From contig DASZGH010000084.1 of the NCBI GenBank assembly GCA_035938935.1, positions 10,731 through 74,730 of the forward strand: a stretch of DNA of 64,000 nucleotides. The letters are read 5' to 3'. This document shows positions 7,592-57,324 of the stretch, one piece after another; positions within the stretch are counted from its first letter, which is position 1, and each line of letters starts with the position of its first letter. The stretch comes from Solirubrobacteraceae bacterium. GTDB lineage: Bacteria > Actinomycetota > Thermoleophilia > Solirubrobacterales > Solirubrobacteraceae. The notes below the pieces were generated by a model. The model saw only the letters and a list, made by a program, of their open reading frames with translations, had not been told where the DNA came from and did not search any database. The translations under genes and the position numbers were made by a program.

Positions 7592-7664
<73 letters not shown>

Positions 7665-37286: not shown

Positions 37287-37544
37287 TTATCGGTCCTGAG
37301 GTGCGACGCTCACGACCCGGCCGCGGCGGCCGGTCGTGAACTGGACGGTCCCGGCCGCGCGCGCGTACAGGGTGTCGTCCTTGCCGATCCCGACGCCGTC
37401 GCCCGGCTTGAAGCGGGTGCCGCGCTGGCGGACGATGATCTCGCCGCCGCTGACCGTCTGGCCGGCGAACGTCTTGACGCCGAGTCGCTGCGCGTTTGAG
37501 TCGCGCCCGTTGCGGCTCGATCCCAGCCCCTTCTTATGCGCCAT
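37287..37544 (-). CDS. rpmA: 50S ribosomal protein L27
   Basis: [24 protein letters not shown]. Confidence 0.98.
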
Positions 37545-37980
37545 CGGGTGTGTCCTCCTCCTTCGGCGCCGGCTGCTTGGCGGCGGCCTTCTTGGCGACA
37601 GCAGGCTTCTTGGCCGCGGCGGGCTTGGCAGCGACGGGCTTGGCCGCGACCTTCGGCGCAGCCTTGCTCACAGCGCCCATCGAGATGTTGGTCACCTCGA
37701 TCCTCGTCAGCTCCTGGCGGTGGCCCGTGCGGCGCTTGTAGCCGCGCTTGGGCTTGAACTTGAACACACGCAGCTTCTCACCGCGCTCGTGACCGATCAC
37801 CTTGGCGGTGACCTTAACCTTCTTCAGCCCGGCCGTGTCGAACACCGCGTCCTCGGAGCGGTAGAGGATCGGCTCGAGCGCGACGTCGGCGCCGGTCTCG
37901 GCGGGCAGGCGCTCGACGAGCAGCGTCTGGCCCCGCTCGACGCGGTACTGCTTGCCGCCGGTCTTGACGATCGCGTACAT
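37534..37980 (-). CDS. rplU: 50S ribosomal protein L21 with Ala/Lys-rich tail
   Basis: [14 protein letters not shown]...GHRQELT. Confidence 0.98.
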
Positions 37981-37983
37981 CTA

Positions 37984-38145
37984 GTGTCCCGAGTCAGAAA
38001 TTCGAAGAGGATTTGCCGAGCGATTGCGCGCGGCCTGACGTTCAACGGCGTCCGTGCGCGTGCCGGTAGCACGTGTGCGGACGCCGGGGGGCGTCAGACG
38101 CGTGCAGGCGCCGGGAAAGACCGTTGAATTTCTGACTCGGGACAC
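37984..38145. repeat. 162-bp rod-like palindromic element, copy 1
   Basis: Perfect 20-bp terminal IR GTGTCCCGAGTCAGAAATTC / GAATTTCTGACTCGGGACAC; interior pairs; homologous to 56959-57120. Confidence 0.85.
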
Positions 38146-38160
38146 CAGCTGTGATCCGTT

Positions 38161-40050
38161 CTACTCCGAGGTTGCCTGGGCCTTAGCAGCCGAACGGCGC
38201 CGTCCGCCTCGACGGCCACGGCGCCGTGCCCGTGATTGTAGGGGATCGCCCGCTGTGGGCGCGGCCTGGACGACCTCGCCGGCCTCGTCGAGCAGCAGCG
38301 CCGTTGCGGCGGTGCGACCGACCGTGTCGATCCTGACCATCCGTTTCTCGCCGACGTGGCCCGCCGCTCCCGCGATCGAGATGATGTAGCCGTCCAGCTT
38401 GGCGACGGCGTCGTCGACGTCGTACATGTGCGGCTCGACGATCTCGACCAGCACCTCGTCGCCCTCGCGGAAGGGCAGCGCCCGTTCTTCGACCTCCTCG
38501 CGCGTACCCTGGAAGGTGATCGCGAAGTGGTCGAGCGTGAGCCCTTCGGAGCCCTCGAAGTGAAACGACTTGCCCGTCTCGGCCTCCAGCGCGTGCAGCA
38601 CCCGCGAGCCCTGGCCGGTGAACTGGGCGGTGACGCGTGGGTTGATCTGCACCAGGAACGCCTCGTCCTCCGGATGCTCGGCCGCGACGTCGCGCAGGCG
38701 ACGCTCGAACTCGATCGCGATCGTCTCCTCCGAGCGAATCACCCCCTCGCCCTCGCAGGTCGGACAGGGTCGGCTCATGATCTCGCGCACGCCCTCGGTG
38801 ACGTTCTGGCGGGTCATCTCGACCAGCCCCAGCCTCGAGATCTCGGCGGTGAAGGTCTTGGTGCGGTCCTCGTCCAAGGCCTTGCGCAGCGTCTTCATGA
38901 CGGCGTCGCGGTTGCGCGCGCGCGCCATGTCGATGAAGTCGATCACGATGATGCCACCGATGTCGCGCAGGCGCAGCTGGTTGACGACCTCACCGGCGGC
39001 CTCGAGATTGGTCTTGGTGATCGTTTCCTCGAGGCCGGTGCCCTTGCCACGCCCTATGAACGAGCCGGAGTTGACGTCGATTACCGTCAGCGCCTCGGCG
39101 TAGTCGATCATCAGGTAGCCGCCGCTGGGCAGGTCCACGCGCCGCGACATCACCCCGGCGATCGCCTCGGTGACCTTGTAGGCGTCCAGCAGCGGCTCCT
39201 TGCCGTCCCACAGCTCCACCCGCTCGACCAGCTCGGGTGCGGTCCGCGCGAAGAACGAGACCAGCCGCTTGTGCTGCCCCTCGTCGTCGACGATCGCTCG
39301 CTCGAAGTGCTCGGAGAAGATGTCGCGCACGACTCGCACCGACAGGTCGGCCTCCTGGAAGACCATTGCCGGCGCCTGCGTGTCCTGCACCCGCTTCATC
39401 AGCACCTCGTGCAGCTTGTGCAGGTAGAGCAGCTCGCGCTCGAAATCCGCGCGCTGCGCCCCGTGCGCGGCGGTGCGCACGATCACGCCGCCGCCGCCGA
39501 TGTCGAGCTTGGCGGTCTGACGGCGCAGGCGCTCGCGCTCTTTGTCCTCCAGCCGCCGCGAGACGCCGACCCCCTCGCCAGAGGGCGCGTAGACCATGTA
39601 GCGACCCGCGATCGTCAGCTCCATCGACAGCCGCGCCCCCTTGGTCTTCAGGGGATCCTTGACGACCTGCACGACGATCTCCTGACCGGGTCCCAGCAGC
39701 TCCGCGATCTTGCGCCCGCCGCCGCGACCGCGCTTGGGCGCCTCGACGCCCGGCAGCACGATCTCATCGACGTGCAGGAACCCGTTCTTCTCCAGGCCGA
39801 TGTCGACGAACGCGGCCTCCAGCCCCGGCAGGACGTTGTCGACCTTGCCCTTGTAGATGTTGCCGACGATCGAGCGCCCGCCGCGGCGCTCGATGTAAAG
39901 CTCAGCTATCCGATAGCCGGCCCCCGGTCGAGCGCTCGTGCGGTTGCGCGAACCGCCGGAGGACTTCGAGGCGCCGGGGGTGCCGGCCGCCTCCAGAAGC
40001 GCCACGCGCGTCTCGGCGCGATCGACGCTGACAAGTACTTGCTTTCTCAA
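38161..40050 (-). CDS. rne: Rne/Rng ribonuclease with C-terminal TRAM-like domain
   Basis: VGNIYKGKV S1 domain, IDVNSG, RLRDIGGIIVIDFIDM, CPTCEGEG; TTG start. Confidence 0.92.
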   Translation of the reverse strand: MRKQVLVSVDRAETRVALLEAAGTPGASKSSGGSRNRTSARPGAGYRIAELYIERRGGRSIVGNIYKGKVDNVLPGLEAAFVDIGLEKNGFLHVDEIVLPGVEAPKRGRGGGRKIAELLGPGQEIVVQVVKDPLKTKGARLSMELTIAGRYMVYAPSGEGVGVSRRLEDKERERLRRQTAKLDIGGGGVIVRTAAHGAQRADFERELLYLHKLHEVLMKRVQDTQAPAMVFQEADLSVRVVRDIFSEHFERAIVDDEGQHKRLVSFFARTAPELVERVELWDGKEPLLDAYKVTEAIAGVMSRRVDLPSGGYLMIDYAEALTVIDVNSGSFIGRGKGTGLEETITKTNLEAAGEVVNQLRLRDIGGIIVIDFIDMARARNRDAVMKTLRKALDEDRTKTFTAEISRLGLVEMTRQNVTEGVREIMSRPCPTCEGEGVIRSEETIAIEFERRLRDVAAEHPEDEAFLVQINPRVTAQFTGQGSRVLHALEAETGKSFHFEGSEGLTLDHFAITFQGTREEVEERALPFREGDEVLVEIVEPHMYDVDDAVAKLDGYIISIAGAAGHVGEKRMVRIDTVGRTAATALLLDEAGEVVQAAPTAGDPLQSRARRRGRRGGRRRSAAKAQATSE

Positions 40051-40169: not shown

Positions 40170-41372
40170 CTAGTAGCGGAGCACGCGGCCCTTCTCGGCA
40201 CGCGAGGCGCCTGCCTGGACGTAGATCGATTGCAGCAGACCCACGGCCAGGAGCGTCGTTATCACCGACGATCCGCCGTAGCTCATGAGCGGCAGGGTTA
40301 CGCCGGTGATGGGCATTATCCCAATCGACATCCCTACGTTCACGAACACCTGGAACATCAGCATAGCCACGACGCCGCCGGCAACCAGCGATCCGAACAG
40401 GTTCTTGGACATTGTCAGGATGCGAAGCGTGCGCCAGATCAGCAGCGCGTAGAGGGACAGGACGAGAGCGGCCCCGACGAACCCGTACTGCTCGCCGACC
40501 GCGGCGAAGATGAAGTCGGTGTGGTTCTCGGGCACGAAGTTGAGCTTGGTCTGGGTGGCGCTTTCGCCGCGGCCGGTCTTCTGACCTGCGCCGATCGCCA
40601 CCTTCGACTCCTCCTGCTGATATCCCTGCTTCTCGGGGTTGCTGGAGGGATGAAGGAAAGCCGTCAGGCGTTCTTCCTGGAAGGGTTTGAGCACGTGAAC
40701 GCCCGCCGCCGGGGCGGCCACGAACACGAACATGGCGGCTATCACCACAAGCGCGATCAGCCCCGCCAGCTGCCGCCAGGACGTCCCCGCCACAAACAGC
40801 AGCGTGAAGGCGATCACCATGTAGACCATCCCAGAGCCGAGGTCGGGCTGGGCGATCACGAACAGCGCCGGGACCGCGGCGGCGGCGATCACCCGCGCCG
40901 TCGTTCCCACTTGGCGCAACTGCCGGGAGCGCGCGACCAGGAGCGCCGACAGCGCGAGGATTAGCAGCACCTTTCCGATCTCAGAGGCCTGGAAGGAGAA
41001 CAGCGGGAAGTTGATCGCCCGCTGCGCCCCGTTCGCCGAATGCCCGAGCGCGAGCACCGCGAGGATGCTCACCACCAGCGCCGCATACACGCCATAAGCC
41101 ACGTGGCGAAAGCGCGAGTAGTCTATCCGCGAGAGCGCCACCATCAGGGCGAGCCCAACGATCAGGTAGACCGCCTGGCGGTCGACGTAGTAGCGCGGCT
41201 GACCCGCGATCAGGTGCTGTGTCGCAGCCCGCAGGGTCAGCAGCGAGCAGAGCCCGAGACCCAGCGCGGCGAGCGTGAGCAGCGGGTCCAACGGCAGGCG
41301 CAGCGTGTGTGTGCGCGGCAGCGCGACTTCGGCTGGCGCGGCGATCGGGCTGGCGGCGGGCGGCGGACTCAT
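40170..41372 (-). CDS. rodA: Rod shape-determining protein RodA
   Basis: FQASEIGK, QPDLGS, PENHTDFIF, LPLMSYGGSS. Confidence 0.93.
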   Translation of the reverse strand: MSPPPAASPIAAPAEVALPRTHTLRLPLDPLLTLAALGLGLCSLLTLRAATQHLIAGQPRYYVDRQAVYLIVGLALMVALSRIDYSRFRHVAYGVYAALVVSILAVLALGHSANGAQRAINFPLFSFQASEIGKVLLILALSALLVARSRQLRQVGTTARVIAAAAVPALFVIAQPDLGSGMVYMVIAFTLLFVAGTSWRQLAGLIALVVIAAMFVFVAAPAAGVHVLKPFQEERLTAFLHPSSNPEKQGYQQEESKVAIGAGQKTGRGESATQTKLNFVPENHTDFIFAAVGEQYGFVGAALVLSLYALLIWRTLRILTMSKNLFGSLVAGGVVAMLMFQVFVNVGMSIGIMPITGVTLPLMSYGGSSVITTLLAVGLLQSIYVQAGASRAEKGRVLRY

Positions 41373-55535: not shown

Positions 55536-56972
55536 CTAGCGGCCCGGAGTCCAAAGTCGCGCTGGCGGGGAATCGGACCCGCCCGCGAGCTCACCCGCGG
55601 CCGCGGCCTCCCGCTGCTCAGATTCCGGCGTCCACAGCTTCTCGCGCGCCTGGGCGAGCTCGACCGGGATCGGCTTTGCCTCGGCGGCGATCAGCTCGAC
55701 GGCCTGTCGCGCCGCCAAATCGTCGGTCAAATCCCCCAGTCGCCCATTGGCGCGCAACTGGTCGAGCACCCCTTGGGGTTGCAACCCCTCGCGCTCGGCC
55801 GTCGGCGCCACCGCATCGAGCAGCTCCTGCTCGCTCGGGACGATCTGCTCAGCCTCCACGATCGCCGCGATCACTGCTTCGCGACGCAGCGACTGCTCCG
55901 CCTCGGGCTGCAGCTCGGACAAAAGGTCGTCCTCGTCGCGCCCGGTGATCTTCAGGTACGCCTCGCGCGAGATGCCTCGATGCGAGAGCGAGTGCAGCAT
56001 CCGGCCCCACATCTCGCGCGCCTTGGCTCCCACCAGCGCCTCGGGCGTCTGCACCTGCGCCCCTGTGGCTGCGGCGTCCAGCGCCGCCTCGCGAAACTCG
56101 GCGTCCACCTGCTTTTCGACCGCCTCGCCGAGGCGCGCACGGATGTCCTCGCGCAGCTCCGCGACCGAGTCGAACCCCATGTCCACGGCGAAGTCCTCGT
56201 CCACCTCCGGCAGCAGCTTCTGCTTGATCTCCTTCGCCGTCACCGCGAACGTCGCATCGGCGCCGGCGAGCTCCTCGTTGGGATAATCGACGGGGAAGGT
56301 CGTCTCGATCGAGCGCGTCTCGCCCGCGGCGATCCCGGTCAGCCCCTCCTCGAAGCCGGGGATCAGGTTGCCTGAGCCGAGCTCGACCAGCTGGTCGCGG
56401 CCCTCGCCGCCCTCGAAGGGCTCGCCACCAGTCGAGCCGACGTAGTCGGCCACGACGAAATCGCCCGCCGCGGCCGGACGGTCGACCGTCTCCAGACGGG
56501 CCAGCCGCTCGCGCAGCCCGTCGATCTCGCGCGAGACCTCATCCTCGTCGACCGACGCATCGCGACGAGCGACCTCGAGGCCCTTGTACTGACCGAGCGT
56601 GGCGCGCGGAAGCACGCCGATCTCGATCGAGAACTGAAGCGCCGCCCCCTGCTTGGGCAGGTCAGCCAGGTCGAGCGTCGGGTCGCCGACCGTGGCGATG
56701 CCGGCGGCGTCGATCGCATCCGCGTACCAGTCGCCGAGCGTGTCGCGCACGGCCTCCTCGAGTACCGCCTCGCGGCCGACGCGCTGGATCACCAGCGGCG
56801 CCGGCACCTTGCCGCGGCGAAAGCCGGGGAACTTCATTTCGCGACCGAGCTGGCGCGCCTTGCGCTCAAGGCGCGACTCGATCTCGGCGGGCGCCACCTC
56901 GACCTGTACGCGCACCCGCGACTCGGGCAACTCTGTCACGGTCGTCTTCAGAGCGGTGGTGTCGGGAGTCAA
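55536..56972 (-). CDS. tig: Trigger factor; 5' end interrupted by palindromic element
   Basis: [13 protein letters not shown] domain (FEGG, IPGFEE, FPVDY); first in-frame start is a TTG inside the element stem. Confidence 0.93.
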
Positions 56973-57121
56973 GAGTTCGGTGAGGGTTTGCCGGGTGTAC
57001 GGGGGTGTCTGACGTTCCCCGTCGGACGTGCGCGTACCGGATAGTACGTGTGCGGACGAAGGGGGACGTCAGACGCGCCCAGACGCCGGCAAACGCCGCC
57101 GAACTCTTGACTCCCGACACC
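56958..57121. repeat. 162-164-bp rod-like palindromic element, copy 2
   Basis: Perfect 23-bp terminal IR GGTGTCGGGAGTCAAGAGTTCGG / CCGAACTCTTGACTCCCGACACC; near-continuous internal pairing. Confidence 0.88.
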
Positions 57122-57134
57122 CGGCACGGCTGCC

Positions 57135-57140
57135 ACGATA
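57135..57140 (-). promoter_or_regulatory. Putative -10 box of a leaderless tig transcript
   Basis: TATCGT, 7 nt, then GTG CCG on the minus strand just outside the element. Confidence 0.5.
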
Positions 57141-57254
57141 CCGTGCGCCGCGATGAGCAAGCGCGCATGCTGCCCGAGCCACGATCGCCCGAATCGGCGA
57201 TCGGCTCACCCTCTCGAGACGTGGCTGTGGACCGGCCCGGTCGGCCACCTGCTC

Positions 57255-57288
57255 GGAGGAGCGCTCGACTTCGCCGAAGCGCTCCTCC
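57255..57288 (-). terminator. GC-rich hairpin, possible terminator of the USP gene
   Basis: 11-bp stem GGAGGAGCGCT/AGCGCTCCTCC; no U-tract. Confidence 0.4.
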
Positions 57289-57324
57289 TCTATTACAGGG
57301 CTAGCCGAAGGGCTCGCTAGCTCG

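Follow-up and report, generated by a model that had tools for sequence, protein, structure and literature searches.

A 162-bp palindromic element, probably an IS630-type MITE, at gene junctions of Solirubrobacterales-like soil bacteria

The gene for ribosomal protein L21, rplU, in a 64-kb stretch of DNA from a Solirubrobacteraceae bacterium (the window; 68.8% G+C, part of a 108-kb soil-metagenome contig) is preceded almost directly by a palindrome of 162 nt, and a second palindrome of the same length stands in front of tig. The question raised by this locus is what such an element is and how it came to lie at translation starts. An earlier note, made from the sequence of the window alone, had regarded the two as members of a new-looking family, either a non-autonomous mobile hairpin directed to the 5' ends of highly expressed genes or a structured RNA.

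Two palindromes at the starts of rplU and tig

Copy A (37984-38145) and copy B (56959-57120), each 162 nt long, lie in the same orientation and end in GTGTC...GACAC; they are 75% identical over 164 alignment columns, and all the internal blocks named in the earlier note are common to both. Within the first 20 nt they differ at five positions (6, 7, 14, 15 and 17), every one of which is mirrored on the opposite arm (pairs 6/158, 7/157, 14/150, 15/149 and 17/147), so that the description given in that note holds pair by pair. Each copy is predicted to form a nearly continuous hairpin, with folding energies of -125.1 kcal/mol on the plus strand (z = -13.9 against shuffles) and -97.8 kcal/mol on the minus strand for copy A, and of -137.1 and -108.7 kcal/mol, respectively, for copy B. 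The internal mismatches are indeed mostly G-T on the plus strand, with seven G·U pairs per copy there against two to three on the minus strand. No third copy was found in the window, and none in the 9.7 kb to its left, which gives a total of two in 74 kb of the source contig.

Palindromic chimeras can be created by an assembler, and some assemblies do end contigs in the middle of the hairpin (X2 records 9 and 16). An artefact is contradicted, however, by an independent run, in which a 3038-nt contig crosses copy B with no difference and every sampled 31-mer of copy A, its junctions included, is present, as well as by the related copies in eight other contigs; its probability may be taken as negligible.

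The genes on either side of both copies are encoded on the minus strand, which is the mRNA-sense strand of the elements. At copy A the order is the RNase E/G gene (rne), the element, rplU and then rpmA and obg; at copy B it is a usp-family gene, the element, tig and then clpP. Copy A is separated by 15 nt from the rne stop codon (38161-38163) and, as had been noted, by 3 nt from the rplU ATG (37978-37980). Its terminal inverted repeats occupy 37984-38004 on the rplU side (GTGTCCCGAGTCAGAAATTCG) and 38126-38145 on the rne side, the latter repeating the former in inverted form over 20 nt without a mismatch. The rplU product (37534-37980, 148 aa) matches the Pfam profile Ribosomal_L21p over residues 1-99 and carries beyond this domain a C-terminal tail of about 45 residues rich in Ala, Lys and Pro.

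Copy B likewise lies at a translation start, with 8 nt between it and the codon aligned to the trigger factor start, and its terminal repeats are found at 56959-56978 on the tig side (GTGTCGGGAGTCAAGAGTTC, one mismatch to the IS-end consensus given below) and at 57101-57120 on the usp side (matching that consensus). The usual trigger factor start is a CTG in the window (56949-56951, minus strand), the Trigger_N profile positions 2-143 corresponding to residues 2-145 counted from it, and a relative without the element has a TTG at this position (X3 record 17). An in-frame TTG within the inverted repeat (56970-56972, minus strand), 21 nt upstream of the CTG, is a candidate start, and copy B may now provide the start codon of tig, adding seven residues. 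The 204-nt spacer upstream of copy B (57121-57324) contains a 10-bp G+C-rich inverted repeat (GGAGGAGCGC...GCGCTCCTCC) about 40 nt past the usp-family stop, with no U-tract after it. The sole Rfam match of the window is a tRNA gene at 7592-7664 (64.7 bits).

Terminal repeats, target sites and empty alleles

When plasmids were searched by BLAST with copy A, a single short match appeared, at four places in a Cupriavidus megaplasmid (NZ_CP073678). The matched sequence is the end of a 1163-bp IS (L007) flanked by C-TA and TA-G, and all 21 nt of this end (GTGTCCCGAGTCAGAAATTCG) are identical in the rplU-side terminus of copy A. The IS codes for a 361-aa protein with four HTH domains (HTH_23/28/29/32) and a DDE_3 domain, which has more than 8000 database relatives, many of them named 'IS630 family transposase' by NCBI. 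Four more related IS from metagenomes and MAGs (L008-L011; ends such as GTGTAGTGAGTTAGAAGTTC), 1163 bp long where measured, stand each at a different site between CTA and TAG, so that all five IS copies at five sites read C-TA, IS, TA-G. The consensus of the IS ends (GTGTNNNGAGTYARARNTTC) matches only the four termini of copies A and B in the 64 kb, with 0-1 mismatch and with none at the rplU-side end of copy A, as compared with 0.06 matches expected by chance. Furthermore, the transposase frame of the IS extends into the repeat (...RISDSGH), its TAG stop being completed by the target TA and a G, and copy A has the same terminal codons followed by TAG.

The likeness of the 1163-bp IS to the element comprises the ends (GTGT...GAGTYAGAARTTC), the C-TA and TA-G flanks, and a terminal frame that runs through ...RISDSGH to the last CAC and takes its stop from the target; the IS differs in being autonomous, with its 361-aa transposase, and in its proteobacterial or other hosts. 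An exact match to known IS ends had been named in the earlier note as an argument against novelty, and with 21 of 21 nt in common the element cannot be called new in kind.

Similarity between the element and these IS ends after about 21-25 nt, and the 110-nt core has no significant similarity to them; a common origin of the core with subterminal parts of the IS was considered and rejected, with one marginal score among 48 comparisons. At 162 bp the element is too small for a transposase, and it has no internal transposase homology. A tblastn search of the 64-kb window with the IS630 transposase found no such gene, the only matching residues being the eight encoded by the repeat, so the earlier statement that the window holds no cognate enzyme stands. 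No transposase with matching ends was found in the 74 kb of source contig (including the 9.7 kb beyond the window) or on L001 or L003, the contigs of two further copies. It counts against an IS630 origin that the IS with matching ends are proteobacterial whereas the host of the element is Solirubrobacterales-like.

Several terminal types occur among the copies (GTGTCCCGAG..., GTGGTTCATCC..., GTGTCCTGCG... and GTGGTCCTTCC...), and these are variants of one repeat architecture, consisting of GTG, a variable middle and GAARTTC. The 'compensatory' terminal stems are thus the two inverted repeats of an IS630-type transposon, changed in pairs because one transposase reads both. The mirrored changes reported earlier are thus real, but as they fall in transposase recognition repeats they are on their own no proof of RNA structure. 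Soil contigs aligned on L003:2476-2637 (X1 records 1 and 5; X3 records 14, 15 and 20) agree with the type II ends over the outermost 35-44 nt and differ from there on, one of them continuing as ...TCGTGCCTGAGCCTTGGGCGGCGACGAAGC; these contigs, which have just the ends in common, may be candidates for a full-length IS or for a second MITE family. BLAST of the type II ends and of loose-end extensions against plasmids gave no match, nor did a protein-database search with a guessed transposase C-terminus for these ends, an approximate query.

Copies elsewhere were sought by exact-pattern scans of genomes and metagenomes, which proved too strict (one true match each, the copies on L001 and L003, and four chance matches), and by a profile of the GTG-frame translations of the window copies, searched against 1.84 billion representative proteins. 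The latter returned 11 clusters of predicted 'proteins' of 52-68 aa, or fusions, that are translations of the element. Altogether eleven full copies were recovered, dispersed at unrelated loci on seven metagenome contigs and one MAG contig, while two scans of viral contigs revealed no copy; further copies with other terminal sequences were seen at the loose ends of metagenome contigs. The junctions occupied include rne-rplU, usp-tig, rpsL-rpsG (L014) and hrcA-dnaJ (L019); other copies lie upstream of an fhaA-like gene in a Solirubrobacteraceae MAG (L001), at a NUDIX-ASCH gene junction of a metagenome contig (L003), upstream of an ABC-transporter ATPase gene (L017) and, as a second copy in the 20-kb stretch of L019, at an ABC ATPase-permease junction, where it is uncalled as a gene and was found by a nucleotide HMM. 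A preference for the 5' ends of highly expressed genes, as proposed in the earlier note, is too specific in view of the fhaA, ASCH and ABC-transporter hosts.

The hairpin tip is variable: in a copy aligned on L003:2549-2559 (X1 record 2, X2 record 8) 57 letters replace 9, the ends are GAG...CTC and TA stands on both sides, and copies I and J (L017:5482-5658 and L018:105-281) carry a 15-nt loop insertion that brings them to 177 nt. One predicted protein (P0126, 211 aa) opens with 47 residues that derive from a copy of the element and lead in frame into a longer product. Upstream of the hrcA-dnaJ copy, L019:1-7660 contains Replic_Relax, TraG/T4SS-coupling-protein-like and SSB genes, and this block resembles an integrative conjugative or mobilisable element.

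The flanking dinucleotide of the 11 copies is TA or TG. The two flanks agree in six of them (TA/TA in D, G and J; TG/TG in F, I and K) and differ in A and H (TG/TA) and in L (TA/TG); on the plus strand the flanks of the window copies are degenerate, with TA/CA in A and TG/CC in B. Copy A stands between CTA and CAG on the plus strand: its TA (37982-37983), one copy of the duplicated target, lies within CTAG and on the mRNA strand forms part of the TAG immediately 5' of the rplU ATG, and its CA (38146-38147; TG on the mRNA strand) is the degenerate second copy. A 2-bp target duplication, for which the earlier note had recommended a search, is therefore present, as the TA on both sides of D, G and J and the CTAG in the empty allele of copy A also show. 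The target is a TA or TG dinucleotide, preferably within CTAG.

Such sites are scarce in the window, with 790 TA against 1558 expected and 47 CTAG against 184 expected from base composition; some of the CTAG coincide with TAG stops of minus-strand genes, for example at 40170, 54821 and 55536. In the pre-insertion spacers of copies A, C and D, TA occurs just two or three times, at the stop codon upstream and at the target itself. Since TA is rare in a genome of 69% G+C and, in the spacers examined, is found mostly at stops or next to starts, copies gather at stop-start junctions (TAGTG, TAATG, TGATG, TAG-ATG), presumably because the few harmless targets lie there, and not on account of high expression of the genes. 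Adjacency to a start codon is accordingly a weak sign of targeting, two to three TA sites being all that the spacers offer.

Sites without the element were searched for by aligning contigs of four soil metagenomes to both loci at 80-88% likeness. They were found in relatives at both A and B, with precise boundaries and with flanks 90-100% identical to the window. At copy A, one contig (X3 record 23), with flank mismatches of 0/61 and 2/90, has an intact CTAG precisely at the insertion point (CAT-CTAG-TGTGATCC), and another (X4 record 26) links 37982 with 38160, the right flank of the window itself lying between them; in more distant relatives the rne-rplU spacer is just about 5-40 nt. Copy B is missing from three contigs, in which 56950/56953 is followed by 57121/57132; one of these is 94% identical across tig. 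Two copies only and no empty alleles, which the earlier note would have taken as evidence against mobility, are thus not what was found. In metatranscriptome contigs of relatives (window 37400-38700; X5, X6, X15 and X21) the end of rne is joined straight to rplU, from which it follows that rne and rplU-rpmA are co-transcribed in this group. The core of the element is covered by contigs from RNA libraries. Among metatranscriptome contigs rplU is much more abundant than rne.

These data bear directly on the structured-RNA alternative of the earlier note, according to which the element would be an immobile, conserved cis-regulatory leader of ribosome-related genes, such as an r-protein leader, a thermosensor or a riboswitch-like RNA. 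Its position directly 5' of rplU and tig and its strong fold with covariation would suit such a leader, but the element is missing from near-identical and close relatives at both sites, stands equally at fhaA, ASCH, ABC-transporter and hrcA-dnaJ loci, has the repeats of a transposon at its ends and matches no Rfam family (Rfam 15 at gathering and E-value thresholds; best element score 19 bits against a gathering score of 75). The empty sites refute it, and we consider a leader RNA highly improbable. The non-autonomous mobile hairpin of the earlier note, by contrast, agrees with the empty sites, the dispersed copies and the transposon-type ends. With a probability of about 0.85, the element is a 162-bp non-coding IS630-type MITE whose surviving copies lie at stop-start junctions and form a hairpin in operon mRNA; ends matching an IS, TA duplication, presence/absence polymorphism at A and B, and dispersed copies without transposase homology are the features by which an IS630-family-derived MITE is recognized.

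According to this proposal, the 20-21-bp terminal inverted repeats (GTG...CAC) would be bound and cut by an IS630-family DDE transposase acting in trans, which would excise the element and paste it into TA, sometimes TG, preferably in CTAG, with duplication of the dinucleotide. Insertions inside genes would presumably be lost, leaving survivors at the stop-start junctions of co-directional genes, and the element would be transcribed within the operon mRNA and form a long hairpin there, with possible effects on translation of the downstream gene and on RNase III processing.

Orientation, strand asymmetry and the open frame

Cut-and-paste transposition of an element with symmetrical ends does not predict a uniform orientation, strand-asymmetric mismatches or compensatory changes in the interior, yet all three are seen. 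All eleven full copies, and a twelfth known from contig ends, have co-directional neighbours and present the same strand in the mRNA; five of the twelve, plus one probable, were found without ORF calls. The antisense strand folds better by 17-45 kcal/mol in 11 of 11 copies, which extends to all of them what had been said of the window copies, and its G·U pairs number 4-16, as compared with 0-4 for the sense strand; the folding difference is obtained also with DNA energy parameters. Comparison of the two arms gives 98 mismatches that read A·C in the mRNA and G·U in the antisense strand, as against 17 of the reverse kind and 79 transversions. Of 49 pairs in the interior outside the repeats, 5 have changed in both partners, and pairing is found in 94% of cells in four sequences, a result reached by 1 of 500 shuffles. 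ERIC elements have orientation-dependent effects on mRNA stability, yet their copies occur in both orientations.

A mutation bias linked to replication or transcription was examined as the cause of the asymmetry and rejected: the G/C skew of the elements is +0.15 to +0.16 on the plus strand of the window, against a window background of -0.011, and the usual deamination bias of coding or leading strands predicts the opposite skew.

The better fold of the antisense strand in every copy, its surplus of G·U pairs (both with the values just given, and the former with DNA parameters as well) and the uniform orientation would also be understandable if that strand were the functional form, either as a single-stranded DNA hairpin moved by an HUH/Y1 enzyme, as in REP/RAYT, REPIN or the IS200/IS605-derived PATE, or as an antisense small RNA. 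Against this, the ends match a DDE (IS630) element and not REP or IS200, the 2-bp TA/TG duplication is a trait of DDE elements that HUH elements do not make, no GTAG-type REP motif and no RAYT/TnpA were seen, and the neighbouring gene tables contain no HUH gene adjoining any copy. In genes that run with replication, moreover, the exposed single strand is the sense strand, and an internal promoter would be unable to yield the whole hairpin. Transversions disrupt pairing on either strand, and there are almost as many of them as of sense A·C mismatches (79 against 98). Such a pattern would agree better with selection for a weaker mRNA hairpin, together with loss of flipped insertions (the orientation with the stabler mRNA hairpin), than with an antisense structure being preserved. 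A functional antisense strand is accordingly quite unlikely, and the 20-nt repeats of DDE type with their 2-bp duplication place the element outside REP/REPIN.

Other functions were tried on the sequence and discarded. A hairpin that bridges a Shine-Dalgarno site to the AUG does not apply, as no such site lies upstream of the A, B or D element; an outward promoter or a leaderless -10 box in the element end finds no fit in the sequence; and an intrinsic terminator lacks a U-tract on both strands. For 6S RNA, a retron msd and an integron attC, the central bubble, a reverse transcriptase and the R'/R'' motifs, respectively, are absent.

The 15 nt upstream of the rplU AUG are predicted to be fully paired with the element in place and 57% unpaired in the reconstructed empty allele; with rplU essential, some unfolding is therefore needed, by translation, RNase III cleavage or helicases. 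Nine of thirteen copies have 162 nt (54 codons), two have 177 nt and two, including copy C, have 161 nt, and indels of 1 nt occur as compensating pairs at different sites. The GTG...CAC frame is open on the sense strand in 9 of 11 copies and on the antisense strand in 8 of 11.

One addition to the MITE explanation, possible but rather doubtful, is that the MITE has been exapted and that ribosomes translate a 54-codon 'relay' frame, which would maintain translational coupling and melt the hairpin. This frame would start at the first GTG or at a start overlapping the upstream stop, and its own stop, supplied by the duplicated target, would overlap or abut the next start. Such arrangements do exist, at the downstream side in A (TAG ATG), D and G (TAGTG), F and I (TGATG) and E (ATGA) and at the upstream side in F, G, H, I, K and L, where the upstream stop overlaps the start of the relay frame; 162 and 177 are both multiples of three despite the 1-nt indels, and the pairing predicted 5' of the rplU AUG would need to be opened. 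The frame is, however, open nearly as often on the antisense strand, has no coding-type GC3 and, stops being rare at such G+C, would be open over 54 codons with a chance of about 0.33. Ascertainment is biased, seven of the 11 copies having been found by way of ORF calls; the frame of copy B continues out of frame into tig, copy C has 161 nt, and the overlaps are largely expected from insertion into the TA or TG of existing stop-start overlaps.

Known elements of this kind and significance

MITEs of bacteria measure 100-200 bp, have inverted repeats and terminal TA, and give transcripts that form long stem-loops, and several families contain open reading frames (PMC2229807; PMC10969869). The nearest parallel in argument is RUP, a small, non-coding, intergenic stem-loop with IS630-like inverted repeats that inserts at TA; it was assigned to IS630-Spn1 from the similarity of its ends and the TA target, the same two arguments as used here for the 162-bp element (PMC2229807). 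RUP is 107 bp long and occurs in about 108 copies per genome of a low-G+C Firmicute; unlike RUP, the 162-bp element is palindromic throughout, comes from high-G+C soil Actinobacteria and has no cognate IS in the host DNA examined.

The Correia/NEMIS elements of Neisseria, 100-155 bp long with 24-26-bp inverted repeats and TA duplication, are co-transcribed with their neighbours, and RNase III cuts their RNA hairpin, altering neighbour expression (PMC2229807; PMC10969869). They probably offer the best model for the action of the present element within an operon, a likeness of function in which RNase III processing would be the shared step. They differ in having an IHF site, promoter-like ends and an unknown transposase, and a uniform orientation and strand-asymmetric mismatches are not described for them in two reviews (PMC2229807; PMC10969869). 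The ERIC/IRU and RPE elements likewise are long imperfect palindromes of 105-150 bp that are transcribed and contain open reading frames, and RPEs are read in frame inside genes (PMC2229807; PMC10969869). RPEs, however, insert within coding sequences, unlike the MITE, and ERIC/IRU and RPE are separate families with short or different ends. A literature search found no report that ties an element such as the present one to Solirubrobacterales; the family is undescribed, but the element is of a known kind.

The finding adds an undescribed IS630-type family to poorly studied soil Actinobacteria, the Solirubrobacterales, and provides a polymorphic marker between near-identical strains. It also calls for caution in annotation, since gene callers turn the MITE into 'proteins' of 52-68 aa or at times attach it to a genuine gene. 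A hairpin of about -100 kcal/mol is tolerated 0-3 nt before the starts of essential genes (rplU, rpsG and dnaJ), and translational coupling or re-initiation over a structured insert becomes directly testable. Beyond the assignment, three properties keep the family interesting: its copies all face one way, their hairpins have decayed asymmetrically between the strands (98:17), and at operon junctions a length of 54 codons is conserved. Together these suggest that selection acts on the way in which an operon mRNA copes with the insertion. The family may even be 'translationally transparent', with stop-start overlaps rebuilt on either side by the GTG...CAC ends and the duplicated TA or TG, a length that is a multiple of three and survival in the orientation weakened by A·C mismatches, although we would sooner doubt this than assume it. 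Ribosomes that finish the upstream gene would in that case traverse the hairpin in the 54-codon relay frame and start again at the downstream gene. If true, it would be a transposon adapted to tightly coupled operons, including those of ribosomal proteins.
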